Below are positions 40,143-63,125 of a stretch of 64,000 bases of DNA, in pieces. The DNA comes from Ruminococcus sp. (GTDB lineage: Bacteria; Bacillota; Clostridia; Oscillospirales; Acutalibacteraceae), in assembly GCA_017481885.1 (NCBI GenBank), contig JAFUOM010000084.1, forward strand, positions 7,959 through 71,958, in the 5' to 3' direction. Every line of letters begins with the position of its first letter. The first letter of the stretch is position 1. Both the position numbers and the translations under genes were made by a program. The notes below the pieces were generated by a model. It made no database searches, was not told the origin of the DNA, and was given only the letters and a program-made list of their open reading frames with translations.

Positions 40143-42125
40143 ATGAAAAACAGATTAATCAGAACAGGTGCGGCAATATTGGCAATGGCTACACTTTGTT
40201 CAGCATCAACACTTTCGTCTTTTGCTGCTAGCACAAGTAATACAAGAACAGTGGATTACACGGTGTATTACACTGAAAACGGAGAGGACAAAGGAATAAA
40301 AAGCATTGAGGAAGACGGCGTTCTTTATTATGATGTTGTTAATAATACCAAAACAGACGTTACTACAGATTATTTAAAGAAATATCTGACAACTGAAGTC
40401 GAATATCTGGACCCTGACGGACCAACAGGCAAAATCACACCGCTCACACAGTGGGCAGAAGTAGCAGGCGCTATTTTTGAAAACGGTGGAAAATATACCT
40501 GCACGGATAATTACAGCACTTATTACGGCAAGAATTTCGAAAGCGGTTCAACCGAGAACAACTATGTTGCAGGAAATCTTGCTAATCCAAAAGCTGTATC
40601 AGTAGGTGACAAGAAGTGCGACAGCTATAAAAGCACAGGACTTTCAGTTGCTTCGTCTTTGGAGAATTTGAGATATAAAATGTGCGAAGAGATTTCAAGC
40701 AGTATAAACCGCTATACTTTAGACCCAGAGGATATTCTTAGTCAGGGTGACAACTGTCCGGACGCATTACCGGAGTTTGCAGATGATACTAATCGTGAAA
40801 TCCTCTACAACATCGTCACAGCTATTTCAAGGAACGGTAAAACCTGCAAGTACAAGTACAATTCATACGGTGTTGCATTTTTTGACTTTGACTTAAAAAT
40901 CATTAACGCTAAGGGTGTTGAGTATGTACAGGACCCATCTAGAGCAAAGCAGGATTCAAGCGTAAAGACATCTGTTGTTAATACCATAAAGAACAACGCT
41001 TTATATGACATATCTGCACAGACAACTACAGAAATGTCTAAATCTGAGACAGTTTCGACATCAATCTCAAACAGCGAGAGTTACAGCTTTGCAGAAATGT
41101 TCGGCGGTCACATTGAGTTTGGCAACAAGTTTGTAAAGGGACTTATCGAGAGTTCACTTACAACTACTCAGGCGTACGAATCAGCGAGAACCGACGAAAC
41201 AACAGTTTTAAGCTCTGTTTCACAGTCAGAATCAGTGGATTGCCTTGTTCCGCAACATACAATAGTCAATGTTGAGCAGAGCATTAGCACCGATTCAATG
41301 ACATTAAACTACGACACACCAGTTGCTTTAACCTACAAGGTGGCTGTGTTCTCAATGAGCGGTGATGTATACGCAGACTCAATTGCAACATTAGCTTTAA
41401 GTACAGCAGGTTACTCACAGTCAAACTTCTCAACATTCTTTGGTGGAGATTCTTCAAAGGAAGGCTTTTATGCTTATGATTCTCTTGCGAACAAGGTAGC
41501 AAATGCAAGCACTCCGGGTTGGGATTCAAGCAACGGTAACAACCATTTCTTCTACAAATATCACAACGGTAAATCAGACCAAACAGACAGAAAAGATATG
41601 GACCTTGACTGGACTGGTATCTGCAATACATATAACAATAACAAATCCGCAAAAGACAAAATTGCAGATTTTGCTAACAAGTGTCCTATGCTTCCTGCAG
41701 GAACAACCACAACAGTAACAGTTGAAGCTATTAACACAACTTTGTCAGAGCCTGTCCCGATGTACCTGCCTACATCGTTCAAGGTTACAAGCTCTGATAA
41801 CCCTAGATATTATTGCTTCACAGGTGGTACATTTAACCTCGGTACGATTTCAATCAATGCGTTTGACAGATTCGGTGCTGAGTATTACGACTTCTTGCCA
41901 AGTGACGGTTACTGGAGTGTAAAGGCTGGCTCAGAGGACATTGTTGAATTCGACTCTGCATCTTACTGTGTAAAAGCAAAGAACCCTGGCTCAGCAACTC
42001 TTGTGTGGCAGCTCAAGGACGGCGTTGAGTACACAGCAGAATACGAAAACGGCATAGTAACAAATGCCAACGCAAACCCTGTTGAAATAACAATCACAGT
42101 CAGAGATTACCCTTTAAACAAGTGA
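40143..42125 (+). CDS. Secreted protein with aerolysin/ETX-MTX2-like Ser/Thr-rich beta core
   Basis: Signal peptide; alternating S/T strands around SYSFAEMFGGHIEFGNKFVKGLIES, followed by VPQHT; AGGAG RBS. Confidence 0.55.
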   Translation: MKNRLIRTGAAILAMATLCSASTLSSFAASTSNTRTVDYTVYYTENGEDKGIKSIEEDGVLYYDVVNNTKTDVTTDYLKKYLTTEVEYLDPDGPTGKITPLTQWAEVAGAIFENGGKYTCTDNYSTYYGKNFESGSTENNYVAGNLANPKAVSVGDKKCDSYKSTGLSVASSLENLRYKMCEEISSSINRYTLDPEDILSQGDNCPDALPEFADDTNREILYNIVTAISRNGKTCKYKYNSYGVAFFDFDLKIINAKGVEYVQDPSRAKQDSSVKTSVVNTIKNNALYDISAQTTTEMSKSETVSTSISNSESYSFAEMFGGHIEFGNKFVKGLIESSLTTTQAYESARTDETTVLSSVSQSESVDCLVPQHTIVNVEQSISTDSMTLNYDTPVALTYKVAVFSMSGDVYADSIATLALSTAGYSQSNFSTFFGGDSSKEGFYAYDSLANKVANASTPGWDSSNGNNHFFYKYHNGKSDQTDRKDMDLDWTGICNTYNNNKSAKDKIADFANKCPMLPAGTTTTVTVEAINTTLSEPVPMYLPTSFKVTSSDNPRYYCFTGGTFNLGTISINAFDRFGAEYYDFLPSDGYWSVKAGSEDIVEFDSASYCVKAKNPGSATLVWQLKDGVEYTAEYENGIVTNANANPVEITITVRDYPLNK

Positions 42126-42392
42126 AAATATAGTAAAGTCAAAAGTGTTGCAGTCAGGTTAATTCCTGACTGCAATGCTTTTATATCAGCCGAAATCTTT
42201 TGAAATTAAAATGATTTACAGTATTTGACAATCTTGCTTCAAAACCATTGACAATTGTCTTATTCTAATATATTATTTACTGTGGAGAACGTTAGTTTGC
42301 TCCTATGTTATTAAATTAAATTTGATAACATAATTTCACTTTTGTTGGTAAATTTATTACTATAATACGATTAGAGAAAAGAGGTAAATTTT

Positions 42393-46298: not shown

Positions 46299-46346
46299 AA
46301 AAAAAGCGTTGCATATCAGGTTTTACCCCTTATGCAACGCTTGTTT
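46299..46346. repeat. AAGCGTTGC hairpin repeat, copy A (also terminator-like)
   Basis: aaaaaagcgttgcata...tatgcaacgcttgttt. Confidence 0.8.
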
Positions 46347-46360
46347 ATATATGCTAAATA

Positions 46361-46810
46361 TTATTTTTTGTAAACAATCAGTTTTCTTGCTATGTAATTC
46401 CACGCCAGTACTACAACAGTAGCTATAGCCTTTGCAATCATATAGTGCATACTGCTGAAGCTTGTGAAAAAGTATAGTATCAGCTCGGTTATGCCAAGAC
46501 CAATTACTCCGATTATAGCGTAGCTTACAAACTCCATTATAGCGTTTACTCTGGCATCGTTTGCTTTGAATACAAGAAGCTTTGACAGAAAAAAGTTTGT
46601 AATCAAGCCTGCAACAAAGGCGATTATCGCAGAAACAAGATAATGGATGTGAGCAAAATCTGTAAGTACGAACAAAAAACCCCAGTCAACAATTGTGGCA
46701 ATTCCGCCGACAAATATATATCTGAAGAACTGCAAAAAACCGTTTTTGGTCGGTGTTATGAACAGACCTTTTAAATCGAATTTTTTAAGTAATTCAAAAA
46801 ACTCTTTCAT
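46361..46810 (-). CDS. GtrA family lipid-linked sugar translocase
   Basis: QFFRYIFVGGIATIVD...NF.LS...VF...AK..A...V..WNY. Confidence 0.9.
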   Translation of the reverse strand: MKEFFELLKKFDLKGLFITPTKNGFLQFFRYIFVGGIATIVDWGFLFVLTDFAHIHYLVSAIIAFVAGLITNFFLSKLLVFKANDARVNAIMEFVSYAIIGVIGLGITELILYFFTSFSSMHYMIAKAIATVVVLAWNYIARKLIVYKK

Positions 46811-46812
46811 AC

Positions 46813-48372
46813 TCAGTTCTCCTGCTTTGCTTCGTGATACTCTTTCTCGGTGTTAACATTCCAGATGTTGTCCTTGTTTGTTTCACCCGAAAGAATATTT
46901 CTGACAGTTTCAAAAGAAGTGCACATACTGTGGTCGATATTGTTGTATCTGTGCTGGCCGTTACGTCCGATACAGAACAGGTTAGGGATAGTGTTAAGGT
47001 AATCTCTCAAATCGTCCATATGGTCATATGTATCAAAGTATGCAGGGTAAGCTTTCTTAACACGCTCAACGTGTGAGTCTAAAACTTCGTTTACATCACT
47101 AATCAAGCCCATAGTTACCATTTCTTTGATAGCCATCTTAGCAAAGTCGTTATCTGTCATTGACCACATATCGTCGCCTTCGTTACAGAAGTACTCAAGA
47201 CCAATCCAGATGTTATTATTAATGTCCTTAACCATATATGGTGACCAGTTGTTGTAAATCTGGAAACGACCCATTTTGACGTTTCTGTCGTGTACATAAA
47301 CCCAGTTGTCAGGAACAATGTTGCCGATAGTCTTTGTCTTAGTCTCGTTTTTGAGGTTAAGTCTTGGGATAAGCACACCGACTGTCATATAGTCACGGTA
47401 AGGCAGACCCTCTGCAATTTTTGTGTACTGCTCAGGAACATCGTTCATACCCATAACTAAATCCTTAACAGGCATAGATGAGATAACGTAGTCGCCGTTG
47501 AGTGTAACCTGCTCGCCGTCCTTTTCGTAAACAAGACCTGTCATAACGTTGTCAGCGTCTTTGATAACGTTAACAACCTTAGCGTTCTTGATGATTTTGC
47601 CACCCTTTTTCTCAAATTCTGCAGCAGTGAGCTCCCACAACTGACCAGGGCCGAGCTTTGGATAAGCAAATTCTTCGATAAGTGAGGTTTCTACCTTACG
47701 GTTTTTCTTGTTGAAGATTTTGCCGAAGATGTCTTTTAAAACAGCTTTGATAGAAAGACCCTTTACACGCTGAGCACCCCATTCAGGAGAAATCTCGCTT
47801 GGGTGTCTGCCCCAAAGATTTTCGGTGTAGTTCTCAAAGAACATAGAGTAGAGCTTTTTACCAAAACGGTTGATGTAGAAGTCTTCCAGTGAATTCTCTT
47901 TACGCTTATGGAAAATAGTTTTTAAGTAGCTGAAACCAACAACGATAGTAGTGCCAAAGCCCATATTTTTGATTGTTTCAAATTTAAGTGAAACAGGGTA
48001 GTCGAAAAACTTTGAATTGAAAAAGATTCTTGACAATCTGTTACGTCTAAGCATTACTCTGTCGGTTTTTTCCGGGTCAGGACCGCCCTGTACAGTTGTT
48101 GATGTTCTGTCAAGAACGATATCATCATATGGCAGAGCACCCTGAGTAGGGAGCATCTTTTCCCACCACTGATTAACTTCCGGCACCTTGGAGAAGAAGC
48201 GGTGACCGCCCATATCCATACGATTGCCTTTATAGTTTACTGTTCTGGAAATACCGCCGAAGCAGTCGCTTTCCTCAAGCACAATAACTTCATATTCATT
48301 TGATTTATCGAGCAGCTCGTAAGCAGCTGTTAAACCGGCAGGACCTGCGCCGATAATTAAAACTCTTTTCAT
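46813..48372 (-). CDS. FAD-dependent oxidoreductase (UDP-galactopyranose mutase/protoporphyrinogen oxidase-like superfamily)
   Basis: [37 protein letters not shown]; co-transcribed with GtrA. Confidence 0.85.
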
Positions 48373-48527
48373 TTTTGCCCTCCAAAAAGTAATTGTCTGA
48401 TTGATAATCTTTATTAATCAACTGTATGAACATTAATTTCCATTATTAAGTATATATCAATAAATCTACATAATCAACACTTTTTTTGCATTTTTCGTGT
48501 CACTGTAACTGTATTGTAAAACTTCGG

Positions 48528-49181
48528 TTATTCTTTCCAAACAAAGTTGTAGTTTATGGATTCGCCACCATCTACCAAAATACTCTGTCCGGTGCAAAAT
48601 TTGTTTGTAACTGTAAGAAAATACGCCCACTGTGCAATTTCTTCTGCGGTTGCCCATCTTTTTAACGGAGTTTCGTTCATAATCTGAGCCCACAGCTTTT
48701 CATCATTGATTACGCAATCATTAAGAGGTGTTATAACCCCGCCGGGGTCAAGACTGTTGCAAGTAGCATTAAAAGGTGCAACACGCAAAGCAACGTTTTT
48801 GGTGTAAGCCAAAATTCCCGCTTTGCTTGCACAGTATTCAGGGAATTCCGCACCAGTATGTGCACTTGCTGAGCCGATGTTCAAAATCGAGTGAATATCC
48901 TCTTGAACACCATATTTTTCAGTGATGTGTATGAGTGCCTTTAGATTAATGTCGATATCCTGCTCGTTCTGTGTGCCAGCGTTGTTAATCAGTATGTTAA
49001 CACCCGTAAGTTCAGGCAGTTTGTCGTAATCCCTTATGTCGCATTTGTAGTGGGTGTAGTTGTCGTCAGCAATGCTAGCGTTCTGTCTGTCAATACCGAT
49101 TACTGTGTGGTTTTCTTCTAAAAACAGCTTTGCAATAGCTTTGCCGATACCCTGTGAAGTTCCTGTTACTAAAACTTTCAT
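48528..49181 (-). CDS. Classical SDR oxidoreductase in the preQ1-regulated operon
   Basis: TGTSQGIG, Asp after beta2 (NAD-type), NNAG, Ser and YCASK, VDGG; 4-nt overlap with VUT gene. Confidence 0.9.
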   Translation of the reverse strand: MKVLVTGTSQGIGKAIAKLFLEENHTVIGIDRQNASIADDNYTHYKCDIRDYDKLPELTGVNILINNAGTQNEQDIDINLKALIHITEKYGVQEDIHSILNIGSASAHTGAEFPEYCASKAGILAYTKNVALRVAPFNATCNSLDPGGVITPLNDCVINDEKLWAQIMNETPLKRWATAEEIAQWAYFLTVTNKFCTGQSILVDGGESINYNFVWKE

Positions 49182-49927
49182 ACCTTACCTCCGTTAATAA
49201 ACTCGAGATATTGCTCTCCAACCCTTTGTTTTTTCCATTTCTGTATGATTGAATATCCGATTGGAGAAAAGATAATTTCCATAATAAGTTCTGCAACCGC
49301 ACCGGTCAGCGCACACATTGAGCACTGCAAAAACGACCAGCAAAAACCGTCCCAGTATATCGGTGCAAACAGCATAAAGACAATCACCGAGAAAATCAGA
49401 TTGTCCAGAAACTGGCCTATAAAGGTTGAGATGTAGCACTGTGTAATATATGCCAGCTTGCCGTCAGGATTGCTGACAAACGCTTTGCCTATAAGCCAGT
49501 TCAAAAAGTTGTTAATCAAAGCTGATATCAAAAAGGCGATTGTACTGCCAAGCAAAATAAACCACGTTCCACCTAAAATAGAGTTAAGTGCAGTGTAATC
49601 ATTTGCGTTTGATGGAATTATGCTCGCAATATAAAAAATCATACAGGTCAGCAGGTTTATACCGCAAGCAAGCAGTGCAACCTTGTTCGATGCCTTCGGA
49701 CCAAAATACTTCGTAATAATGTCCATACACATAAAAGACAGCCAGGATATTAAAATTCCGCCGTCAAGTGCGATAATCTCGGTTTGCACAAGAGTTTTGT
49801 TTGCAAGCAGGTTCATACAAATGACGCTCACAACAAACAGCGATACAACCGTTGAGGGGATACTTCGAAATAAGAGCGTAGTTTCATCGTGTTCTCTCTT
49901 AATCAAACTTTTAAAATCTGTTTTCAT
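49178..49927 (-). CDS. VUT/YhhQ (COG1738) queuosine precursor transporter
   Basis: NLLANK, DII...FG, STIAF, ST..GQFLDN..F motifs; preQ1 riboswitch upstream; start MKTDFK with AGGTG RBS. Confidence 0.85.
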   Translation of the reverse strand: MKTDFKSLIKREHDETTLLFRSIPSTVVSLFVVSVICMNLLANKTLVQTEIIALDGGILISWLSFMCMDIITKYFGPKASNKVALLACGINLLTCMIFYIASIIPSNANDYTALNSILGGTWFILLGSTIAFLISALINNFLNWLIGKAFVSNPDGKLAYITQCYISTFIGQFLDNLIFSVIVFMLFAPIYWDGFCWSFLQCSMCALTGAVAELIMEIIFSPIGYSIIQKWKKQRVGEQYLEFINGGKV

Positions 49928-49955
49928 TTTATCACCTGAAAAGAAAGTGTTATAC

Positions 49956-49991
49956 AAAAAATAAAGTGGCTGAGCAAAACGCAAAGCCACT
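49956..49991 (-). terminator. Riboswitch expression-platform terminator
   Basis: Minus strand agtggct-ttgcgttttgctc-agccact-ttatttttt. Confidence 0.7.
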
Positions 49992-50018
49992 AATCATTAC
50001 AATATTTATGAATAGCAG

Positions 50019-50061
50019 TCCTGGTTTTGTTTAATGACAGGATGGTACAAGCGAACTGTCA
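50019..50061 (-). ncRNA. preQ1 class I riboswitch
   Basis: UGACAG-UUCGCUUGUACCAUC-CUGUCA-UUAAACAAAAC-CAGG: P1 stem, UUCG/CCAUC loop, A-rich tail, CUUG/CAGG pseudoknot; starts just after an extended -10 (TGATATAAT, 50070-50078). Confidence 0.85.
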
Positions 50062-50189
50062 GCAAAGTAATTATATCAAATTATCGCAAAAAAACAAGTG
50101 GTTTGTACATCTGATATTGCTATGATTTTATTTGATGTGATATAATTATCCCGACAAAATGAATTTGACGATGCAAAGGAGGAAATATT

Positions 50190-50585
50190 ATGAACGCGTT
50201 TGATAACAGCGATTTTGAAAAACATAAAGCAGAGGCTAAAGAAAAATGGGGAAAAACGGAAGCGTACAAGGAGTATGAAGAAAAGACAAAAAGCTACTCT
50301 AATCAGAAATGGAGCGATCTTGTCGAAGGGTTAGACCACATTATGGCAGAGTTTGCACTTTGCCTGAAAAATGACGAAACACCGGATTGTGTTACAGCTC
50401 AGGAACTTGTGAAAACACTGCAGGACTACATTACCGAAAACTACTATCTCTGCACAAACGAGATTTTAGCAGGACTCGGTCAGATGTATGTTGCAGATGA
50501 ACGCTTCACCAAAAATATAGATAAACACGCTGATGGAACAGCGGAATTTATCTGTCAGGCAATTAAAGTCTATTGCAATAAGTAA
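50190..50585 (+). CDS. Stand-alone TipAS antibiotic-recognition domain protein
   Basis: EAKEKWG.T.AY, GLGQMYV.DERF..NID...G.AEF; no MerR HTH. Confidence 0.85.
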   Translation: MNAFDNSDFEKHKAEAKEKWGKTEAYKEYEEKTKSYSNQKWSDLVEGLDHIMAEFALCLKNDETPDCVTAQELVKTLQDYITENYYLCTNEILAGLGQMYVADERFTKNIDKHADGTAEFICQAIKVYCNK

Positions 50586-50589
50586 ATTC

Positions 50590-50652
50590 AAAAAAGCGTT
50601 GCGGATGAGGGTAACGTAAGTGTATATCCTCAAACTGCAACGCTTGTTTTTT
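50590..50652. repeat. AAGCGTTGC hairpin repeat, copy B
   Basis: aaaaaagcgttgcgg...caaactgcaacgcttgtttttt. Confidence 0.85.
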
Positions 50653-50656
50653 ATAT

Positions 50657-51409
50657 TCAACTTAAGATAGTATCCGTTAAAAGCATTAAACAAAAGCCAA
50701 TTAGCAAGGCATACGTAGAAGCTCTCTCGTTGCCATGAGCATGAGTTTCGGGTATCATTTCATCGCTGATAATATAGAGCATTGATCCTCCGGCAAAACT
50801 CAGAGCAAACGGAAGTATTGCAGTGGAAATGCTAACCGCAAAGTATCCGATTAGTGTCCCGATAACTTCTACAAAACCCGTAATAGATGCAAGTATGAAG
50901 GTTCTTGATGGTTTGATTTTTGCTGATAGCATAGGACCGATGATAACCATACCTTCAGGGATGTTTTGTAGAGCAATACCTCCTGCAATTATAAGTGCCT
51001 GAGATAAGTCTTCAGAACCAAATCCCACACCTGCTGCGATACCTTCAGGAAGATTGTGAATAGCAATAGCAATAACAAACAACAATACTTTGTTGGTGTT
51101 TGAATTTGGTCTATATTCTGTACTTATTCCTGTGAGCCTGTGCAGATGAGGAACCAGTTTGTCTATCAGATTAAGACATATCGCTCCAACAAAAATACCT
51201 GTTATAGTTATAAGAATTCCGTATTTACCACCATACTCAAGTGAGGGTAATATCAGCCCCAAAATTGAAGCTGAAAGCATAACTCCCGCAGCAAAAGACA
51301 GAACAATATCAGAAAACTTATGTGATATGTTTTTGAAACAGAACCCCAGCAAAGAACCAAACACCGTAGCGGTACCGACACCGATTGCGGCAAGAAATAC
51401 AACTCTCAT
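50657..51409 (-). CDS. ZIP family (ZupT/GufA-like) metal transporter
   Basis: FAAGVML, HNLPEG, QNIPEG, DEMIPE. Confidence 0.92.
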   Translation of the reverse strand: MRVVFLAAIGVGTATVFGSLLGFCFKNISHKFSDIVLSFAAGVMLSASILGLILPSLEYGGKYGILITITGIFVGAICLNLIDKLVPHLHRLTGISTEYRPNSNTNKVLLFVIAIAIHNLPEGIAAGVGFGSEDLSQALIIAGGIALQNIPEGMVIIGPMLSAKIKPSRTFILASITGFVEVIGTLIGYFAVSISTAILPFALSFAGGSMLYIISDEMIPETHAHGNERASTYALLIGFCLMLLTDTILS

Positions 51410-51477
51410 ATACTCCTCCTCTTGAGTAGTTTACTACAAATCGCATTTAAAATACCTGTGTACTATAAGCAGTTTAC

Positions 51478-51687
51478 AGCCGATATGAAAATTTACAGCA
51501 AAAGCGAGAACGCAGACTATATCAGGCAGATAATCTTAGTGCTTTTATGTTTGCCCTGAAAGAACTCGACATCCTCAACCTCAAATTCACCCCAACCCTC
51601 TGGCACACAACAGTAGATAAAGTCACAGTAAATGCAGACGGAAGTGTGGTGTTCAGCTTCAAGAACGGTAGTGAGGTAGAGGTGTGA
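51478..51687 (+). pseudogene. 3' remnant of a large serine recombinase gene
   Basis: Frame SRYENLQQKRERRLYQADNLSAFMFALKELD...LWHTTVDKVTVNADGSVVFSFKNGSEVEV* resembles the coiled-coil/C-terminal end of clostridial serine integrases; no 5' part. Confidence 0.72.
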
Positions 51688-51705
51688 GTAAATAAATTAC
51701 AAACA

Positions 51706-52755
51706 TTATTTTAATTGCGTTGTATTATCTCGAAACAAAAAATCTATACCGAATTCTTTTTTACTAAACCAATGCACTTCGATTTCAAGAACTTGTTTCG
51801 GTTCTGTTACTCTCCTGATTTTTGGCATCAACAACTCTATCGGGATTAATCCATTTGCCATGAATATTATTACATATTCGCTTATAGTGGCACGAAGCGA
51901 ATGCCTAACACCTGTTTTTCCTCTCTTTGCTTCAGCTTTAGTCTTTTTCAACATCTTCCAAAACGCAACGATTTCATCTCTTTGAAAATGAGCAAAGAAA
52001 AGTAGGATTTTATACCCTCCATTTTCTGTTGAACTATTCACAGTACGTTCTGGTAAAAGATGCAAAAAATTCCGAAAGTATTGAATGGATAACTTCTGTT
52101 TCGCAGATTTCTTCATTCCATATTTTCCTGCTAAGAACTGATGCACTAACGATTCGTTTTTTTGAGGCTTGGTCAGAACCATCTCATTATCGATTCCATC
52201 TGAAATCATAATATCGATATCGCCATACTTTTCATATATAGACTTTCTATATTCTAGATATTCGACTATTTCAATAGGGGTAACTAGAATGCGACACATT
52301 TCACAGTAATCAGTAAAAGACATACAATTTATGTTCATACCTGAAGCAGAATGTTTCCTCAGCAAATGTGGATAATCATCAATTTGGTTATTTTCAAAAA
52401 CTACTAGAGGGATTACCTCTGCATCTGGTTGCAGCGAAATGTTCTGTCCACGCTTATTAGTAAAGGTTGGAAGTGTTCCAGACGAAATAAATTGTAATGT
52501 TTCCTTTATTTGTCCCTTTGCATTCTTACATTTCTTTTGAAGCCATTTGTTCTCGGTAAAATAGTCGTCAGTTTGATCTTTGCCGTTACGAGATTTAAGT
52601 TGGATTGCAATTATGACATCATCAAGATTGATAAGAAGATCAGCGACTTCCACTTCTGTGGATCCCTCTGGAGTGAATTTCAATTCATCAATTACAAGCT
52701 CTTTAAAAAAATAATCCTCCGAAAAAGCACTTAACAGTTGTTCTGATTTATTCAT
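51706..52755 (-). CDS. Hypothetical protein, possible PD-(D/E)xK/NERD-like nuclease
   Basis: EVADLLI...IAIQLKSR motif; AT-rich, atypical codons; own extended -10 promoter. Confidence 0.55.
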   Translation of the reverse strand: MNKSEQLLSAFSEDYFFKELVIDELKFTPEGSTEVEVADLLINLDDVIIAIQLKSRNGKDQTDDYFTENKWLQKKCKNAKGQIKETLQFISSGTLPTFTNKRGQNISLQPDAEVIPLVVFENNQIDDYPHLLRKHSASGMNINCMSFTDYCEMCRILVTPIEIVEYLEYRKSIYEKYGDIDIMISDGIDNEMVLTKPQKNESLVHQFLAGKYGMKKSAKQKLSIQYFRNFLHLLPERTVNSSTENGGYKILLFFAHFQRDEIVAFWKMLKKTKAEAKRGKTGVRHSLRATISEYVIIFMANGLIPIELLMPKIRRVTEPKQVLEIEVHWFSKKEFGIDFLFRDNTTQLK

Positions 52756-52907
52756 AATTCATCATCCCCATTCTACGTATATAAAATAATTATATCACAC
52801 TATAATGAGCTTCGCAATAAACTGCAGTTTAACGATAACCCCATAGTTTAACGATAGGGTTATTGATTTCACCGGCAAAAACTTAAAACTACATATTTTT
52901 ACACAAC

Positions 52908-52970
52908 AAAAAAGCGTTGCACATCAGGGGAGATACAAAAATACTCCTTCAAACTGCAACGCTTGTTTTT
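52908..52970. repeat. AAGCGTTGC hairpin repeat, copy C
   Basis: aaaaaagcgttgcaca...caaactgcaacgcttgttttt. Confidence 0.85.
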
Positions 52971-52979
52971 ATTATCTGC

Positions 52980-53795
52980 TTATTTACTTTGCTTTTTGCT
53001 AAGCTCATAGAATGCTACTGCTGATGCAGCGGCAACGTTTAAAGAATCAACGCCGTGAAACATAGGAATCTTTACGGTGTAATCGCAATTGTCTATGGTT
53101 TTATCCGCAAGTCCGTCGCCCTCTGTTCCCATAACGATAGCGAGCTTTTCCTCTTTTGCAAGCCTTGAATCTCCAATAGAAAGAGAGTTATCCTTAAGCG
53201 CCATGGCAACGGTCTTAAATCCCAGAGCCTTGATTTCGTCCAGACTGTCATTTTCTAAAAACGTCCAGTCAATCTGAAAAACAGTGCCCATACTGACTCT
53301 TGCGGCACGTCTGTAAAGCGGGTCAGAACACCCGGGCGTAAGAAGCACCGCGTTCATTCCAAGAGCAGCGGCTGAGCGGATTATCGCACCCACGTTTGTT
53401 GGATTCATAACCTTGTCCAGAATAACGATTCTGCTTTTGTCTTTGCAGATTTCGCTTACACTTTGCAGTGGCTTTCGTTTCATAGCGCACAGCATACCTC
53501 GGGTGAGCTTAAAACCTGTGAGCTGAGTCAGAATGTCAAACTTTGCACAAAAAATCGGAACGTCTTTCATCCGCTCGAGAATATGTTGGTTTTCACCGTC
53601 AATACGCCCTTTTTCCATAAGACAGGAAACAGGTTCGTAGCCAGCGTTGAGAGCACGCTCGATAACTTTCGGACTTTCTGCTATAAACAAACCTTTTTCG
53701 GGAAATTCTTTGTTAAGTAACTGAGCTTCGGTCAGCCTTGCATATACATCAAGCTCAGGGGCATTGAAATCTGTTATTTCGATAATATTATTCAT
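52980..53795 (-). CDS. TrmH/SpoU family RNA methyltransferase
   Basis: NPTNVGAIIRSA, R.SMG, GTEGDGL, IPM...VDSLNVA; GGAG RBS before MNNIIE. Confidence 0.92.
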   Translation of the reverse strand: MNNIIEITDFNAPELDVYARLTEAQLLNKEFPEKGLFIAESPKVIERALNAGYEPVSCLMEKGRIDGENQHILERMKDVPIFCAKFDILTQLTGFKLTRGMLCAMKRKPLQSVSEICKDKSRIVILDKVMNPTNVGAIIRSAAALGMNAVLLTPGCSDPLYRRAARVSMGTVFQIDWTFLENDSLDEIKALGFKTVAMALKDNSLSIGDSRLAKEEKLAIVMGTEGDGLADKTIDNCDYTVKIPMFHGVDSLNVAAASAVAFYELSKKQSK

Positions 53796-53897
53796 ACTGT
53801 TCTCCATAGTATTGATGTGTCTATTGTAGCCTTAATGACACCAAAGTGTCAATGTTTTTTGCCCCAAAGCTCAAAAGCCGATATGAAATTTTACAGC

Positions 53898-53959
53898 AAA
53901 AAAGCGTTGCAAATGTGGGGACGATACTTTTATCTCCATCAAACTGCAACGCTTGTTTT
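53898..53959. repeat. AAGCGTTGC hairpin repeat, copy D
   Basis: aaaaaagcgttgcaaa...caaactgcaacgcttgtttt. Confidence 0.85.
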
Positions 53960-54041
53960 CGTTGGTATTATTCAACATAGCTATATTGTTGCCTTTGTTA
54001 TGTAATGCTGATATAAAAAAATGCATGTAAACTCGGATTGT

Positions 54042-55208
54042 TTATACATTTTCGCTTTCAGCATCTGCTTTTTCAAACGGGAGATAAATCCTGTCGTTTG
54101 AAAAGACAATATGCAACTGGGTGTTGTGTATTTTATCAAACAAGCGGATTTTGTCAGCGAACACGTTGATACCGCAGTCATCGACAAAGTCAAACTGAGC
54201 TATCGCTTTATCTATGGACTTCTTGTTGTACTCCTCAACCTTGTCGCTACCAGTAACCAGCTTGTCATCGAGCTTGATCATATCCTCAAGCTCAGGGATT
54301 TTTGAAAGCTGTCTGCCGACAAATTTACCCATACGGGCGACACTCTTGAGCGCTCGGGATTTGATTGAATTTGATGCATAGTTTTCGGCTTCGTGCACAC
54401 ATCGCTTGTAGAACAGCTCATAATCCTGTGCGTATCTCTCAATCTTGTATACAACACTGTTAAGATATGAGCTCTCGAAATTTCCGATCAACAAAACATC
54501 GAGAAAAGACGCAAAAGCGTACAGATACACAGAAAGCTTGTAGTACTTGAACTCTGTGCGTATAAAACTTATGAGGTTTGCTGTATCCATATGCAAAGCA
54601 GGTTGGCTCTGGATTCGTTTTTCAATCATACTGCGATAAAAGAGGATATTGTGCTCGGCATTTCTCTTTATATCGATGATCTGCATTTCACGATTGTTGC
54701 TGTAGCCTTCGTTGTCCCAGTTGTGCTGATAGTCGCCGATAATGTCAGACAGAATAATAAGGTCACCCCTAAGTTGAGATTGCTTGTCCATCTCAAGAAA
54801 GCCGAGAATCTCCCGCTGGGTTTTAGATATATCTTTCATGATTTTGTTATTCGCAAGTATAGTCAGCGCCATAAACATAGAACCCGAAGAAGCACTTCTG
54901 ACAGTTTTAAGCACAGTTTTTCCCAGAACAGCATTGTCCTTTACAATGCCTGCAACCGCAGCACCGTGATTTTTCGCAAATTCACCCGCAACCGGCATTA
55001 CCGCCTCATACAAACCCTCAGTAGCGTCACTTCCGCTTACTACCGAACACACCGCCGAAGACAATGCCTTAAAGGCAACCCCGAGTGCTACGAGATCGTT
55101 GAGCGAAAAGGATACACAGTCCTTAAGCTTCGCTTCATCAAAATCATAGACTTTAAGTTCCTGGGCCTGAGTGACCTCAAGAAATCTTTCCATAGCTACC
55201 TTGTCCAT
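54042..55208 (-). CDS. Hypothetical, predominantly helical protein
   Basis: Long ORF with GGAG RBS before MDKVAM; no recognised catalytic motif. Confidence 0.7.
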   Translation of the reverse strand: MDKVAMERFLEVTQAQELKVYDFDEAKLKDCVSFSLNDLVALGVAFKALSSAVCSVVSGSDATEGLYEAVMPVAGEFAKNHGAAVAGIVKDNAVLGKTVLKTVRSASSGSMFMALTILANNKIMKDISKTQREILGFLEMDKQSQLRGDLIILSDIIGDYQHNWDNEGYSNNREMQIIDIKRNAEHNILFYRSMIEKRIQSQPALHMDTANLISFIRTEFKYYKLSVYLYAFASFLDVLLIGNFESSYLNSVVYKIERYAQDYELFYKRCVHEAENYASNSIKSRALKSVARMGKFVGRQLSKIPELEDMIKLDDKLVTGSDKVEEYNKKSIDKAIAQFDFVDDCGINVFADKIRLFDKIHNTQLHIVFSNDRIYLPFEKADAESENV

Positions 55209-55447
55209 AACAAGTACTCCCATTTCAATATGATAGAATTTGTTTAACACAAACTAATTCTATCACACAATCAGTTGGTTTTCTATATTTTTTCACAAAA
55301 TATATTAAGTCGGTTTAATTTTTTCTGAGTTTTGAGTATAATCTGACTTCAGATACGGCTATCGTGTAATTGTGCCGAAACATGTCAACATTAAAATAAA
55401 AAGTGGGGAATGTGTTGCTCCGGTGGGGGAGTGTGGTTCAGGTGAAC

Positions 55448-55494
55448 CAACGCTTGTTTTTTATTCTCTGCTTATTCACTTGAGTTCTTGCTAA
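55448..55494. repeat. Partial AAGCGTTGC repeat, copy E (right arm plus flank)
   Basis: About 85% identical to 52957-53002. Confidence 0.7.
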
Positions 55495-55685
55495 AATTTA
55501 GCGATAAAACGACGAAACCGCTGTCGACACGATTGTATCAACAGCGGTATCTGATTTGGTACGAGTGTTAATAACGGATTTATTTTAATATAGGTTTTAT
55601 CGGCAGTTACACGCATTTCTCGCTCGCACATAAGGGACTCTTTCAAATTCTTCGTAGAATATTAGTGTAATCGGAGGAATTACAG

Positions 55686-55994
55686 ATGAAAAACATTATA
55701 GAAGAGTTATTCTACGGAAACATCGACCCACAGGCTCGTACAGTCAAGAAAGGCAGTTGCATACAAAAGCAGATAGCTATCCTTGCAAACAGCGAAAGCT
55801 TATTGAACGAGAAACTTACAGGTGAAGAAAAGAAAGCTTTTGCTTCTTTTGTTGATGCTTCAAGTGTAATTCTCGGAAAGTCTGAACTGGACAGCTTTAT
55901 GGTTGGGTTCAGACTTGGTGCAAGGTTTGTTTATGATACATTTGTAGATACCAAAACTCTTTATAACAACTTGTTGGAGGAGGAAAGCGAATGA
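55686..55994 (+). CDS. Small mobile-element-associated protein (DUF6809-like)
   Basis: I.EELFYGNI.P...F..GFRLGA pattern. Confidence 0.7.
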   Translation: MKNIIEELFYGNIDPQARTVKKGSCIQKQIAILANSESLLNEKLTGEEKKAFASFVDASSVILGKSELDSFMVGFRLGARFVYDTFVDTKTLYNNLLEEESE

Positions 55995-56167
55995 GAAAAA
56001 AGTATCACATCTACCTCACTTATGAGGAAAGACGAATGTTATTGAATAATCTGAATGATTTCAGGAACAAGCTGATTGCCGAGGGTAAATATACAGACTT
56101 GTTAGATGAAGTAATAATCAAAGTAGCAAATGCAAAACTCAAACGAGTTAAAGTTAAGGAGGGCTAA
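55991..56167 (+). CDS. Small hypothetical mobile-element protein (58 aa)
   Basis: Not in ORF track; MRKKYHIYLTYEERRMLLNNLNDFRNKLIAEGKYTDLLDEVIIKV...; ATGA overlap upstream, RBS of tnpV inside. Confidence 0.7.
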   Translation: MRKKYHIYLTYEERRMLLNNLNDFRNKLIAEGKYTDLLDEVIIKVANAKLKRVKVKEG

Positions 56168-56170
56168 ATA

Positions 56171-56521
56171 ATGGAAATTACATATACAATGCAGGGCGAT
56201 TATCTTCTCCCTAATCTTACATTACCTGAGCAGGAAAACAGAGAAATCGGAATATGGGGACAGCGACATAAAACGTATTTGCTGAACCACCATAAAGTCA
56301 GATATTATAACTTACTCACAAGCTGTAAGCTCATAGATTACCTCGCAGATATTAACGTACAAGCTGAAAATATGTATCAAACATTAGTCAAACAACTTGC
56401 CGAACAAGAAGAAGTAACCGAACAGCTTAAAGCAGAAAATCTTATGCTTTGGGTTCAGAAAATGAATAATATCCAAAACAGAGCAAGAGAAATAGTGAAT
56501 AAAAATATTATCTATCAGTAA
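56171..56521 (+). CDS. tnpV: TnpV family protein (Tn4451-type mobilizable elements)
   Basis: Y...GDYLLPNL.L....IG.WG.RH..YL...GxTEQLKA-like ...WV..MNNI..RA.EIV. Confidence 0.85.
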   Translation: MEITYTMQGDYLLPNLTLPEQENREIGIWGQRHKTYLLNHHKVRYYNLLTSCKLIDYLADINVQAENMYQTLVKQLAEQEEVTEQLKAENLMLWVQKMNNIQNRAREIVNKNIIYQ

Positions 56522-56616
56522 GACAAATACTTATATAGTGAAAATCTATAATAGAAAGCTATAAAATATAAATAGACAGCAAATTTTCAAGTTATATTGA
56601 AGATTTGCTGTTTTGT

Positions 56617-56675
56617 TTTACTTCGATTTTACATCGTTTGGGTTACGGATTTTACAGCCTGAAATTACACTATAA
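56617..56675 (+). promoter_or_regulatory. Putative Pho-box promoter of pstS
   Basis: TTTAC(A) at 56617, 56628 and 56650 (11-bp phasing), -10 TATAAC at 56670, no clear -35. Confidence 0.65.
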
Positions 56676-56718
56676 CTGTGGACAAAAGAAATAACCACAG
56701 AAAGGATATTAAAGATTT

Positions 56719-57516
56719 ATGAAAAGAATTCTCAGTTTAGTGCTGGCAGTGATTTTAATGTGTACAGTATTCGTAGGCTGCGGCAACACAAGTGAAACAG
56801 TAACAACAGACGGCTCAACTTCTATGGAGAAGGTAATCGGAGCATTAGGTGAGGCATTTGAAACAGAGAAAGGCATCACAGTAACCTATAATCCTACAGG
56901 TTCAAGCTCAGGTATCAAGGCGGTTAAAGAAGGAACTTGCGATATTGGTCTGTCTTCAAGAAACCTTAAGGATGAGGAAATCGCAGAAGGTCTTAAAGGT
57001 ACAGTGTTAGCTTACGACGGTATCGCAATTATCGTTAACAACGCAAATTCAGTCAGCGATATGGATTTAGAAACTATCGCAAAAATTTTTAAGGGTGAAA
57101 TCACAAACTGGAAGGAACTTGGCGGCAAGGATGCTGAAATTGTTTTAATCGGTCGTGAGGCAGGTTCAGGTACTCGTGATGGTTTTGAAAGTGTTACAGA
57201 TACAGAAGACACTTGTAAATATCGTCAGGAGCTTACCTCTACCGGTGATGTTATCACAACAGTTTCATCAAATGAAGATGCAATCGGTTATGCTTCAGTT
57301 GCATCTGTTGAAGAAACAGTAAAGACAGTAACAGTCGGTGGTGTAGCACCTACAGAGGAAACTATTAAGAACGGTACATATGTAGTACAAAGACCATTTG
57401 TACTTGTTACAAAAGAGGGCGAGGCACTTTCAGAAAGTGCGAGTACATTCTTTGACTACATCACAAGCGATGAGGCGGCGGAGATTATTGCATCAGCAGG
57501 TGTAGTTGCAGCTTAA
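56719..57516 (+). CDS. pstS: Phosphate ABC transporter substrate-binding lipoprotein
   Basis: Lipobox FVGC, GSTS, TGSSSG, SSR, REAGSGTR. Confidence 0.93.
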   Translation: MKRILSLVLAVILMCTVFVGCGNTSETVTTDGSTSMEKVIGALGEAFETEKGITVTYNPTGSSSGIKAVKEGTCDIGLSSRNLKDEEIAEGLKGTVLAYDGIAIIVNNANSVSDMDLETIAKIFKGEITNWKELGGKDAEIVLIGREAGSGTRDGFESVTDTEDTCKYRQELTSTGDVITTVSSNEDAIGYASVASVEETVKTVTVGGVAPTEETIKNGTYVVQRPFVLVTKEGEALSESASTFFDYITSDEAAEIIASAGVVAA

Positions 57517-57588
57517 AAAAGGAAAAATAGCGAGCGACGGCTGAATTTTCAGTCGCCGCTTTTGCCCTGTTCGGGCGAGGTATGATTT

Positions 57589-58452
57589 ATGAAGAGAAAA
57601 AGACTTTTTGAAAATATTATCCACGGAGTATTTCTAATTTTAGGACTTATTACCGTAGGATTTGTTTTACTTATCACAATTTATCTGATTGTATCCGGTA
57701 TACCTGCCATTAAAGAAATAGGACTAATTGATTTTCTTTTTGGCACTCAATGGGCACCAACAAAATCAGAACCACAGTATGGAATTTTACCATTTATATT
57801 AACAAGCGTATATGGAACAGCAGGTGCAATTTTAATCGGTGTACCTATCGGCTTTATGACAGCTGTCTATCTTTCTAAGGTCGCAAACAAAAAGGTTAGA
57901 GCAGTTGTGGAAAATGCAGTTAATCTGCTTGCAGGTATTCCGTCAGTTGTATATGGTTTGGTAGGTATGCTGATTCTGGTTCCGAGTATTAAAAAGATTT
58001 TTGATGTGCCTGACGGAGCAAGCCTCTTTGCGGCAATTATAGTGCTTGCTGTTATGATTCTTCCATCAATTATTAAGGTATCCATAACATCCCTTGACGC
58101 AGTGCCTAAGGAGTATGAAGATGCATCTCTTGCACTTGGTGCTACACCTACTGAAACATATTTCAAGGTGTCTGTACCTGCCGCAAAAAGCGGTATTGCC
58201 GCCGCAGTAGTGCTTGGTGTAGGCAGAGCTATTGGGGAAGCTATGGCGGTTATGATGGTGTCGGGTAATGTGGCAAATATGCCTTCCCTTTTTGAAAGTG
58301 TGCGTTTTCTTACAACAGCCGTTTCAAGCGAAATGGCATATTCAAGCGGACTTCAGCAACAGGCACTTTTCTCTATAGCGTTGGTGCTATTCCTCTTTAT
58401 TATGCTAATAAATGTAACTCTCAACTTCTTCTTGAAGAAGGAAAGGAAGTGA
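57589..58452 (+). CDS. pstC: Phosphate ABC transporter permease
   Basis: LAGIPSVVYG, GRAIGEAMAV. Confidence 0.93.
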   Translation: MKRKRLFENIIHGVFLILGLITVGFVLLITIYLIVSGIPAIKEIGLIDFLFGTQWAPTKSEPQYGILPFILTSVYGTAGAILIGVPIGFMTAVYLSKVANKKVRAVVENAVNLLAGIPSVVYGLVGMLILVPSIKKIFDVPDGASLFAAIIVLAVMILPSIIKVSITSLDAVPKEYEDASLALGATPTETYFKVSVPAAKSGIAAAVVLGVGRAIGEAMAVMMVSGNVANMPSLFESVRFLTTAVSSEMAYSSGLQQQALFSIALVLFLFIMLINVTLNFFLKKERK

Positions 58453-58456
58453 TACT

Positions 58457-59329
58457 GTGAACACGAGTCTTAAAGGTGAAATGAAAAAGAGTCGCAAATA
58501 TTACATAACTTTTATGAAAGTCGGTATGCTTTTTTGTACTGCATTAGTAGCGTTATTGACATTGTTTATGATAGCGTATGTTCTGATAAAAGGTGTACCA
58601 AATATCAGCTGGGAGCTTTTATCAACAAAGCCAAGCTATATCTCGGACAGAATCGGTATCTTGCCTGACATTCTAAATACACTTTATATTGTAATTACAA
58701 CTCTTATAATCGTAATTCCCTTGGGTGTGGGTGCGGCGATTTACCTTACAGAATACGCCAAGAATAAGAAAATCGTAGCGGCTATAGAGTTTGCTTCGGA
58801 AACTCTTTCGGGTATTCCGTCAATTATTTACGGTCTTGTCGGTATGCTTTTCTTCTGTCAGTTTATGGGAATGAAAACCTCACTTATTGCAGGCTCATTA
58901 ACACTTGTTATTATGAATCTGCCAAATGTTATGAGAACTACTCAGGAAAGTCTTAAAACTGTTCCACAGAGCTATCGAGAAGGTGCATTTGGACTTGGTG
59001 CAGGCAAGTGGCGAATGATTCGTACAGTTGTACTGCCCGGTTGTGTAGATGGTGTTATTACAGGTTGTATTCTATCAATAGGTAGAATATTGGGCGAATC
59101 TGCGGCACTTTTGTTTACGGCAGGCTTTGCACACGCAATGGGCGGTGTACTTGATGCACTAACAAGTCCCGGAGCTACACTTACAGTAGCACTTTATGTG
59201 TATGCAAAAGAGCAGGGTGAATTTTCAGTAGCTTTTGCTATTGCGGCAATTCTGATGATTTTAACACTTATTATAAATTTCTCAGCTACTTTAGTTCAGA
59301 AACATTTTGAAAAAAGGAGAAAAGTATGA
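58457..59329 (+). CDS. pstA: Phosphate ABC transporter permease
   Basis: [27 protein letters not shown]; start may instead be ATG at 58481. Confidence 0.92.
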
Positions 59330-60081
59330 GCAGTATAATTAAAGCTAAAGATTTGTGCCTTTGGTATGGAACTTCTCAGGCACTCAAAAATATAAACATT
59401 GAAATTCCTGAGAAAAGTATCACCGCTTTCATAGGTCCCTCAGGTTGTGGTAAATCTACATTTTTGAAGACTTTAAATCGTATGAACGACCTTATCCCAA
59501 GTGTTAAAATTACGGGTGAGGTAACCTACGGCGGTACAGATATTTTCGATAAAAGCGTTGATGTGAATGAACTCAGACGTCAGGTGGGTATGGTTTTCCA
59601 GAAGCCTAATCCATTCCCTATGAGTATTTACGATAATGTTGCCTATGGTCCTCGTACTCACGGAATCAAAAATAAGGTTCAGCTTGATGAAATTGTCGAG
59701 CGTTCTTTAAAAGGTGCCGCTCTCTGGGATGAGGTTAAGGATAGACTTAAGAAGAATGCTTTAGGTCTTTCGGGTGGTCAGCAACAGCGTCTTTGTATCG
59801 CTCGTGCTCTTGCTGTTGAGCCTCAAGTGCTTTTGATGGATGAACCTACTTCGGCACTTGACCCGATTTCTACATCCAAAATAGAAGAACTTGCAATGGA
59901 GCTGAAGGAAAAGTATACTATAGTTATGGTTACTCACAATATGCAGCAGGCTGTGCGTGTTTCCGACTATACCGCATTCTTCCTTTTGGGTGAGCTTGTT
60001 GAGGTTGATAAAACCGACAAGCTGTTCTCAACTCCTAAAGACAAGCGAACAGAGGATTATATTACAGGAAGGTTTGGTTAA
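59326..60081 (+). CDS. pstB: Phosphate ABC transporter ATP-binding protein
   Basis: [33 protein letters not shown]. Confidence 0.96.
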
Positions 60082-60082
60082 T

Positions 60083-60724
60083 ATGCGAAATAGATTTGAT
60101 GAACAACTTGCACTTCTTAACAAAAAGATGATTGAAATGGGAGCTTTGTGCGAAAATATAATTGCCTTGTCAACAAAAGCGTTGCTTGATGGTGACGTTG
60201 AGGGTGCGAAAAGAGTAACCGCAATCGGCAGTGACATTGACCATATGGAAAGAGAAATCGAGTCTATTTGCCTTAAACTCCTTTTGCATCAACAGCCTGT
60301 GGCAAGAGATTTAAGGCAGATTTCAGCGGCTCTTAAAATGATTACCGATATGGAGAGAATAGGCGACCAAGCCGAGGATATTGCGGAGATTATCCCTTTT
60401 CTCTCAGGTAGAACTGGAGAAGAGTGTGCTGAAATCCGTGAGATGGCAGAGGTAACAATCAATATGGTAACTGATTGTGTAGATGCTTATGTAAAACAGG
60501 ATTTAAAACTTGCAAGGTCAGTTTATGACCATGATGATGTGGTTGATACTTGCTTTGACAAAGTAAAAAGTAAACTGATTTCTATGATTGCACAGAATAC
60601 CGACAATGGAGAGTATGCTATAGACTTACTGATGATAGCAAAGTATTTTGAGCGTATTGGTGACCACGCAGTCAACATCGCCGAGTGGGTAGAGTTTTCT
60701 GTTACAGGTGAGCATAAGGAATAA
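60083..60724 (+). CDS. phoU: Phosphate signalling protein PhoU
   Basis: QQPVARDLR, DMERIGDQA, ERIGDHAVNIAE; start moved to MRNRFD. Confidence 0.95.
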   Translation: MRNRFDEQLALLNKKMIEMGALCENIIALSTKALLDGDVEGAKRVTAIGSDIDHMEREIESICLKLLLHQQPVARDLRQISAALKMITDMERIGDQAEDIAEIIPFLSGRTGEECAEIREMAEVTINMVTDCVDAYVKQDLKLARSVYDHDDVVDTCFDKVKSKLISMIAQNTDNGEYAIDLLMIAKYFERIGDHAVNIAEWVEFSVTGEHKE

Positions 60725-60746
60725 ATGTGATTTTGGAGGTGTTGTT

Positions 60747-63067: not shown

Positions 63068-63075
63068 AATCAGTG

Positions 63076-63104
63076 AGGACATCGCAAATTTGCGGTGTCC
63101 TTTT
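63076..63104 (+). terminator. Intrinsic terminator after phoR
   Basis: aggacatcgcaaatttgcggtgtcctttt. Confidence 0.7.
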
Positions 63105-63125
63105 CTCGTTAGATATCACATAAAA

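Follow-up and report, generated by a model that had tools for sequence, protein, structure and literature searches.

A predicted terminator hairpin shared between the slots of a variable gene array beside tRNA-Met in Ruminococcus sp.

We analyzed a 64,000-nt window of a Ruminococcus sp. genome (GenBank assembly GCA_017481885.1, contig JAFUOM010000084.1; G000:C72:7959-71958 in our numbering), drawn from an assembly of 1.94 Mb in 109 contigs with 40% G+C, and found that it carries four co-oriented hairpins of the form AAAAAAGCGTTGC…GCAACGCTTGTTTT together with one half copy. This hairpin, hereafter H2, is a predicted bidirectional intrinsic terminator that belongs to a larger unit, the ancestral place of which would be directly downstream of the 3' end of tRNA-Met, beside metG. 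In the reading that we favor, and to which we give about an even chance, H2 would act as a bidirectional terminator in a unit that marks where elements attach at tRNA-Met as well as where one family of serine-recombinase elements ends, and the array would be the product of serial integration at the tRNA CCA end, decay, and recombination among copies. Copies were mapped in 222 species genomes of the genus, and 300 genomes from 152 other genera of the order were searched as well. Throughout, G-numbers (G009, G018, G021, G023, G119, G120, and others) denote the genomes compared, G000 being that of the window, and L-numbers denote loci within genomes, L010 being, for example, the locus of G023.

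Hairpin copies and the unit around them

An exact-pattern search placed the two 13-nt arms of H2, AAGCGTTGC and GCAACGCTT, identical in four copies, at positions 46304-46342, 50594-50645, 52912-52964, and 53902-53954 (46299-46350, 50589-50656, 52905-52971, and 53895-53961 when the A/T tracts are included), with a lone right arm at 55447-55459. Dinucleotide-preserving shuffles of the sequence never reached the observed arm counts. The paired pattern occurs four times in the whole assembly, always in the window array, and an nhmmer profile of the larger unit yielded no further match in the assembly at E<=1. Asymmetric inner sequence, GC[A/G].AT[C/G].GG … TCAAACTGC, revealed a single orientation for all copies. 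The initial annotation of this DNA, which had reported four full copies and a partial one in a shared orientation, is thus confirmed on both points; its statement that none lies elsewhere in the window holds for exact pairs but not for a diverged relative at 42144-42179.

H2 is built of a 9-bp invariant G+C-rich stem lengthened by an A-tract/T-tract, an internal loop, and a variable self-pairing top, and it ends in a U-run whichever strand is read. Directly after the stem GCGUUGC/GCAACGC come UUUUUU (minus strand) or UUGUUUU (plus strand), and the window copies fold at -21 to -26 kcal/mol (z -4.5 to -6.2) with U-runs next to the stem in both readings. Fold energies and z scores were computed for each sequence separately because the variable centers could not be aligned in a common register. 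With 47 H2 copies as input, RNAalifold and pair counting found the stems invariant, which leaves nothing to count either way for covariation. All four window copies lie 2-88 nt past a stop codon, two of them on both sides, and in relatives 41 of 46 long copies are faced by a gene 3' end on at least one side. Each full copy in the window lies, as had been noted, downstream of a minus-strand gene, namely GtrA (46361-46810), ZIP (50657-51409), a SpoU/TrmH-family methylase (52980-53807), and a 402-aa hypothetical protein (54042-55250). The first two copies are also preceded by plus-strand genes, GNAT (ending at 46288) and TipAS (stop at 50585), so that both sit between convergent genes. The three extended -10 promoters described in the same annotation were found at 50117-50146 (+), 52817-52789 (-), and 55285-55257 (-).

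Terminator positions and terminator-like folds would also be expected if the hairpins were unrelated ordinary terminators, alike by chance or base composition, but we give this possibility practically no credence. Chance resemblance is refuted by the shuffles, by the uniqueness in 1.94 Mb of a pair pattern whose 13-nt arms are identical in four copies, and by flanks shared over 150-240 nt. The copies are therefore not independent terminators, in agreement with the earlier view, and instead make up a recurring module that is associated with the ends of mobile elements and with a hypervariable region of cassette-like character.

Flanked alignment of the copies uncovered conservation well past the hairpin, and the unit could be described by a 238-position profile, which was used along with exact-pattern and BLAST searches for mapping. 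It comprises a P arm (positions 1-85) that holds a second hairpin, H1, followed by H2 (~86-160) and a P' arm (161-237). The H1 stem varies compensatorily, ACCGCTGT/ACAGCGGT versus CCTCTAT/ATAGAGG, round a conserved 16-nt loop, and the unit as a whole contains the motif TATCGTTAAA three times. Its start in relatives is directly at the CCA end of a tRNA-Met(CAT) gene, beside metG. Copies fall into four classes, that is, full, P+H2, H2+P' (the commonest), and naked H2. As a separate observation, tRNA-Met is separated from the unit in three species by an insert of ~115 nt that bears a terminator hairpin of its own (GTCGCAAACG…CGTTTGCGAC plus a T-run; L021 11380-11480, L020 8545-8645, and L012 4026-4126) and takes the place of the first half of H1.

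The hairpin motif is present in 39 of the 222 species, at 1-10 copies per genome that nearly always lie within ~10 kb of each other, and BLAST detects the unit in 35 of the 222; long-form H2 was not found in the 300 genomes of other genera. The unit is thereby restricted to one locus and one subclade. A donor lineage carrying the motif genome-wide was sought among the same 300 genomes of the order, and none was found. Unit-bearing genomes are metagenome-assembled genomes labelled Ruminococcus sp., Acutalibacteraceae, or Clostridia, and many of their isolate names point to ruminant guts (goat, sheep, deer, yak). Rfam searches of the window region and six related loci, at the gathering threshold and at E<=1, returned no family for the hairpin or the unit, the only matches being to tRNA-Met, the fluoride riboswitch, the lysine riboswitch, and Gut-1; literature searches found no description of the hairpin repeat.

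The window copies differ in how much of the unit they retain. Copy 1 (46299-46350), between the convergent GNAT (+) and GtrA (-) genes, is a short form of H2 with a 39-nt core and no unit arms; its first 21 nt are 95% identical to copy 3, it matches unit positions 96-167 weakly, and it folds at -23.7 kcal/mol (z -5.9) ahead of a U-tract. Copy 2 (50589-50656) is a naked long-form H2 fitted between the stop codons of TipAS (+) and ZIP (-, 50657), corresponds to unit positions 83-158, and folds at -21.1 kcal/mol (z -5.2). Copy 3 (52828-53001, minus strand; unit positions 64-237) retains, besides H2 (52905-52971), the P' arm (52828-52907) and a ~22-35-nt end piece of the P arm, is joined to the final codons of SpoU, and folds at -26.1 kcal/mol on the minus strand (z -5.5) and -21.4 kcal/mol on the plus strand (z -6.2). 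Copy 4 (53895-53961), again a naked long form, lies between the 402-aa gene, which it follows, and the SpoU promoter (53852-53823), which it precedes.

The prevalence of the H2+P' class could alternatively mean that these 150 nt are a small-RNA gene or a 3'-untranslated-region regulatory module in paralogous copies, conserved for that role, with P' as promoter and operator (TTCAGC-16-TATAAT flanked by TTAACGATA), H2 as terminator of a ~130-nt RNA, and gene shuffling as an incidental matter. In 35 aligned copies, the -10-like hexamer indeed keeps A2 and T6 (TATAAT, TACAAT, CATAAT, TATGAT, GATAAT, TAAAAT) while its neighbors vary, as in a -10 box, and TTAACGATA directly follows TATAAT in P' and TATAAA in the P arm. 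We nonetheless consider such a function improbable as the explanation of the array. The -35 element is weak, there is neither an Rfam match nor covariation in the invariant stems, the box of the window's own P' is degenerate (CATAGT) and was not picked up by a promoter scan, and P' is absent from three of the four window copies; moreover, this reading would explain neither the CCA junctions nor why the unit is confined to one locus.

A further alternative dispenses with the tRNA altogether and regards H2 plus its A/T tracts as a small non-autonomous element, akin to miniature inverted-repeat transposable elements (MITEs) or repetitive extragenic palindromes (REPs), or as a palindrome that copies itself into nearby gene ends independently of integration at tRNA-Met. 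It would fit the naked ~70-nt copies found 2-13 nt from stop codons in unrelated contexts (TipAS, ZIP, GNAT, and a 946-aa gene of relatives) and the short forms with the same arms, sometimes in mixed orientation, that follow pckA and other genes in G009, G023, and G118. The confinement of 1-10 copies per genome to one ~10-20-kb neighborhood, rather than their dispersal, makes this very improbable; neither target-site duplications nor terminal repeats besides the stem were seen, and random insertion would not be expected to produce the strict co-orientation of the long copies.

The CCA junction and serine-recombinase elements

We examined 21 P-arm starts, of which 20 are preceded by CCA and one by TCA. 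This CCA derives from the tRNA itself, from tRNA 3' fragments that have been displaced (16-45 nt; seen in G118 and, at two places, in G119), or from at least five unrelated sequences, ending in …TTTATGCCA, …GCGACGAGCCA, …CAGCTTACCA, …TTTTTGCCA, and …CACTCGTACCA. In G119, a 12-kb array spans from the tRNA to a tRNA fragment followed by a P arm. With an intact tRNA at one end and displaced tRNA 3' fragments at internal and distal boundaries, these loci have the layout of a tRNA-linked island grown by tandem accretion. G120 carries a 25-kb segment whose genes include three for large serine recombinases, two of which adjoin each other. A unit flanks this segment on either side (83% identity across 240 nt), the first located after the tRNA and the second after GCCA.

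On a side note, two large-serine-recombinase genes (527 and 425 aa) overlap head to tail in G120:C31 (L029 8307-11154) and G108:C22, the third lying at the far end of the same 25-kb element. Such paired and distant recombinase genes recall the layout of the ccrA/ccrB pair plus ccrC in staphylococcal cassette chromosomes (SCC).

The half unit of the window (55448-55560, minus strand) consists of a complete P arm (55448-55556; unit positions 2-108) with H1 (stem 55517-55524/55541-55548), the single H2 arm at 55447-55459, and the last four bases of tRNA-Met, TGGT (55557-55560); it is the attL-type junction. In a relative's contig, the same half-unit sequence continues straight into tRNA-Met at the position equivalent to 55560. 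What separates the P arm from tRNA-Met and then metG in the window genome is an intact ~18.2-kb Tn4451-like integrative mobilisable element on the plus strand (G000:C72:63514-81724; window part 55561-64000). It is bounded by 20-bp terminal inverted repeats (GAGTGTTAATAACGGATTTA and its near-copy; the terminal repeat in the window is at 55563-55582) and a shared TGGT. Its ends read …TTTGGT/ACGAGTGTTAATAACGGATTTA and TAAATCCGTTATGAACACTCTTAC/TGGTTGCGG, with TGGTTGCGG… belonging to tRNA-Met, and its genes comprise DUF6809, TnpV, a pst/pho operon, YibE/F, NikA, a MobA relaxase, ParB_N, TnpW, and a TnpX-like large serine recombinase with DUF4368 (C72:79880-81619). The empty site, …ATTTGGTTGCGG…, occurs in G023 (L010) and in the relative's contig. 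In RNA data, three runs contained small shares of the region, all as contigs of related strains, and these confirmed an empty site and variable hairpin centers. The junction at 55557-55582 thus has inverted repeats round a short core, a recombinase at one end of the element, and an empty counterpart in relatives, as is typical of a large-serine-recombinase attachment site.

H2 lies ~100 nt from this junction, and the terminal repeats of the element have nothing in common with it. We sought the terminal repeat near other units; apart from the two termini of the element itself, it is present only in one related element of G108, which occupies another site. The expectation that intact serine-integrase elements would end in the hairpin motif was therefore not borne out here, since the element of the window ends at the tRNA/P-arm boundary with inverted repeats of its own. 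As to its cargo, the element appears to carry a complete pstSCAB/histidine-kinase phosphate operon plus a YibE/F gene; to our knowledge, a phosphate-uptake operon on a mobilisable transposon is unusual.

L010:32-1417 in G023 encodes a large serine recombinase (Resolvase, Recombinase, and Zn-ribbon domains) that is 92% identical to those of G108 and G120, and pieces of this gene persist in the window. A 3' remnant at 51478-51685 (+) shares 83% DNA identity with the intact gene of L010 and 84% protein identity over the last 69 residues, and a 33-nt fragment at 53867-53899 (+), 100% identical to L010 1199-1231, is fused to hairpin 4 through the 12-nt microhomology ACAGCAAAAGCG; the same joint of recombinase fragment and hairpin was found in G082. 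These findings substantiate the link that had been suspected between the hairpins and serine-recombinase remnants, given that the gene is intact beside units in relatives and that an intact 18-kb element abuts the partial copy. In window orientation, the order in G023 and G120 is recombinase, one or two small genes, P', H2, and P, and a decayed version of it surrounds hairpin 3 of the window. This order suggests to us that the unit forms the end of elements of that family, where H2 would serve as terminator.

Array content, breakpoints, and the hairpin center

Across species, arrays hold 2-8 copies, for instance six long copies in 10 kb in G119, eight hairpins in 14 kb in G108, and three each in G068, G125, and G070. 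No discordant orientation was seen in the 17 loci with at least two long copies (47 hairpins), and orientation relative to the tRNA was uniform in all 14 tRNA-bearing loci scanned. Gene content between copies is different in every species examined, whereas the metG side is syntenic throughout. The slots of G119 contain NUDIX, ZIP, dltABCD, PAP2, and a helix-turn-helix (HTH) protein; one in G023 contains a Na+/H+ exchanger-family gene under a fluoride riboswitch (L010 2184-2260, G023:C73); a 946-aa aerolysin/dockerin protein lies between copies in G018, G068, and G108; and the 25-kb recombinase-bearing element fills the interval in G120. SpoU and ZIP recur with neighbors that change from genome to genome. 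Gene variation between copies with many homology breakpoints at the hairpin, as had been anticipated, is therefore what the comparison returned, and neither a genome-wide spread of generic terminators nor a conserved gene order was seen: copies occupy one locus and their slots differ. The notion of repeated single-gene acquisition proved too narrow, as slots hold one to several genes or the 25-kb element. We also observed that the promoter of the G023 exchanger gene (TTGCTA…TGTGCTATAAT) recurs beside hairpins in G119 and G014.

One block illustrates this mobility. The stretch 50589-51687 (minus strand), which encompasses H2, the ZIP gene, its promoter, and the recombinase 3' remnant, is 94-96% identical to its counterparts in G119, G021, G018, G068, and G085, whereas the adjoining metG/tRNA region reaches only 70-85%, which points to recent exchange of the block between species. 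Homology between the window and G021 begins exactly at the outer edge of hairpin 2 (50589). More generally, the P side of the stem has junctions, all within ~12 nt, with no fewer than seven unrelated sequences (the ZIP stop, the stop of the 946-aa gene, two promoter types, and a recombinase fragment among them), and the P' side has junctions with at least seven further ones.

The hairpin itself is at once conserved and variable, in line with the conserved arms and self-pairing center of the first description. The outer stem never varies and the tRNA-side 5' half, AAGCGTTGCAGTTTGA, is nearly invariant, while the center is only 59% identical; the 47 copies have 43 different centers, most of them self-pairing (mean z -1.5). 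Centers track neither the adjoining gene nor the P' subtype. The last 60 nt of ZIP, identical in five species, precede five different centers, and the 946-aa gene is followed by three. This shuffling would be accounted for by conversion between copies through the invariant arms.

The architecture of H2, its strict co-orientation, and the clustering of junctions at its stem sustain the attraction of another reading, in which H2 itself, with or without P', would be specialized for site-specific recombination in the manner of integron attC sites (59-base elements) or Vibrio cholerae repeats (VCRs), and circular one-hairpin cassettes would be captured and excised between hairpins by a recombinase encoded nearby or now lost (e.g., paired large serine recombinases). 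We regard it as unlikely. Like attC and VCR arrays, the copies are imperfect, co-oriented palindromes of ~55-70 nt with conserved ends and variable self-pairing centers, separated by one or few genes at a single locus whose content differs between relatives. The attC-type fold (paired R/L boxes, unpaired spacer, extrahelical bases, variable top) has a comparable layout in the H2 prediction, with invariant stems: over 53-67 nt, the outer and the inner stem (TGA…TCA) are conserved and separated by a small internal loop, one base is often bulged, and the top varies. Single genes can lie between strictly co-oriented copies, of which an array has up to eight (G108, G119); no fewer than 14 independent junctions fall within ~12 nt of the stem on either side; G070 shows units split as P+H2 … cargo … H2+P'; a gene end lies ~106-130 nt before P'+H2 in 34 of 46 copies, as in an open reading frame followed by its site; and recombinase remnants lie within arrays.

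However, the arms read 5'-GTT…AAC-3' on both strands, in reverse of the attC order AAC…GTT, and no 7-mer fits the RYYYAAC/GTTRRRY consensus. No attI/Pc platform was recognized, none of the five PF00589 (Phage_integrase) matches in the genome lies on contig C72, no integrase was seen among the annotated array genes, and no recombinase consistently adjoins the arrays. Unlike integron cassettes, the genes have their own promoters and stand in either orientation, and centers are inherited with neither neighbor. The arms of the G070 split unit are cut 10 and 22 nt from H2, hence at no fixed point, and one fusion is accounted for by the 12-nt microhomology. The demonstrable crossover lies ~100 nt outside the hairpin. 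The comparison to attC in the initial annotation is not supported, and its broader proposal of recombination sites or element termini stands in part: the module is tied to element ends and breakpoints hug the hairpin, but no evidence singled out the hairpin itself as the crossover, the clear site-specific junction being that at the CCA/P-arm boundary. Rather unlikely as well is that the hairpin, with or without P', serves as the cassette-recombination site of a tRNA-Met-anchored gene-capture platform in Acutalibacteraceae (Bacillota), run by large serine recombinases or another enzyme and not by an integron integrase. If true, it would represent an independently evolved integron-like system in Bacillota, a phylum from which we know of no reports of classical integrons.

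In the favored account of serial integration at tRNA-Met, the boundary between the tRNA CCA and the P arm would be an attachment site reused by integrative elements, at least one family of which (the large-serine-recombinase elements of G120 and G023) would bear its own unit at its end. Since such an element brings its unit along, each integration would add one co-oriented copy and push older elements outward, that is, tandem accretion. Integrated elements would then decay, with their recombinase genes cut down to fragments and their P and P' arms lost, and blocks would be swapped between species and between copies by recombination through the invariant arms. H2 may have been kept because it insulates tightly packed, individually promoted genes, and the outcome would be a row of "gene + shared hairpin" slots. 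We infer both this order of events and some mechanism that would focus breakpoints at the base of H2.

Several observations weigh against this account. The 18-kb element of the window genome carries no unit copy, so that accretion by unit-bearing elements rests mainly on G120 and G023, and recombinases ~60-65% identical occur in other species without the unit. The 14 or more independent junctions within ~0-12 nt of the stem are not obviously explained by simple decay, which does not explain the nearly invariant AAGCGTTGCAGTTTGA half beside a variable center either. The account gives no part to the conserved P' arm, in which a TAnAAT box and three TATCGTTAAA motifs are found, and some of the cargo, for example dltABCD, ZIP, and SpoU, resembles chromosomal genes more than genes borne by an element. 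Finally, a simple terminator scan does not report H2, because the scan allows only 3-8-nt loops and H2 has an internal loop.

Should serial integration nevertheless be correct, the locus would reveal how a small chromosomal neighborhood of uncultured gut Clostridia is built and rebuilt, with one tRNA-Met end taking element after element, a terminator-bearing module remaining as gene "punctuation", and blocks such as the zinc-transporter gene moving between species. The 240-nt unit plus CCA-bounded junctions can serve as an annotation marker for a variable, exchange-prone region. For two or more large-serine-recombinase families, the loci also supply attB/attP pairs as they occur in nature, and they offer a test case for rearrangements that cluster at a conserved palindrome; were the hairpin an active recombination site, they would amount to a new kind of cassette system.

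Known systems and neighboring features

Among known processes, the closest appears to be the tandem accretion of integrative elements at a conserved gene end, exemplified by cis-mobilizable elements (CIME) and integrative and conjugative elements (ICE) at fda in Streptococcus thermophilus and by composite SCC arrays at rlmH in staphylococci, the latter driven by Ccr large serine recombinases. The analogy covers attachment at a fixed chromosomal point where a housekeeping gene has its 3' end, slots bounded by direct and co-oriented repeats, varied cargo often without a recombinase, large serine recombinases, partly as adjacent pairs, in intact members, and a mosaic of decayed elements. Unlike in those systems, the repeat here is a 150-240-nt two-hairpin module rather than a short att core, its terminator hairpin survives alone, many junctions lie at the hairpin instead of the att point, and much of the cargo consists of ordinary chromosomal-type genes.

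The 18-kb element, in turn, resembles the clostridial mobilisable transposons of the Tn4451/Tn4453 family (TnpX, TnpV, TnpW, TnpY, TnpZ) in its TnpV, TnpW, ParB_N, MobA-type relaxase, TnpX-like recombinase with DUF4368, and inverted-repeat ends, but it carries the pst/pho operon in place of catP and sits at the tRNA-Met 3' end, without the hairpin unit. Repeats that double as terminators are known from Neisseria DNA uptake sequence (DUS) pairs, Correia elements, and the enterobacterial REP/bacterial interspersed mosaic elements (BIME). They share with H2 an inverted repeat common to gene ends that acts or is predicted to act as a terminator, whereas they number hundreds of copies genome-wide and H2 1-10 copies in one neighborhood. 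What is unusual here is a leftover 150-240-nt unit whose hairpin persists alone, keeps its arms invariant while its center is shuffled, and attracts the end points of rearrangements.

Just outside the array, a secreted aerolysin-like gene (40137-42125) is followed by the diverged hairpin at 42144-42179 (+), AGTGTTGC…GCAATGCT, in which both changes keep G·U pairs in the plus-strand RNA. This hairpin is orthologous to an exact-arm copy in G009 (L015 5791-5823). Aerolysin-like proteins, with a dockerin in the 946-aa relatives, also fill hairpin-bounded slots in three relatives (L012 4459-7299; G068; G108). Elsewhere in the window, positions 167-246 and 17143-17313 match the Gut-1 RNA and the lysine riboswitch, respectively, above the Rfam gathering thresholds.

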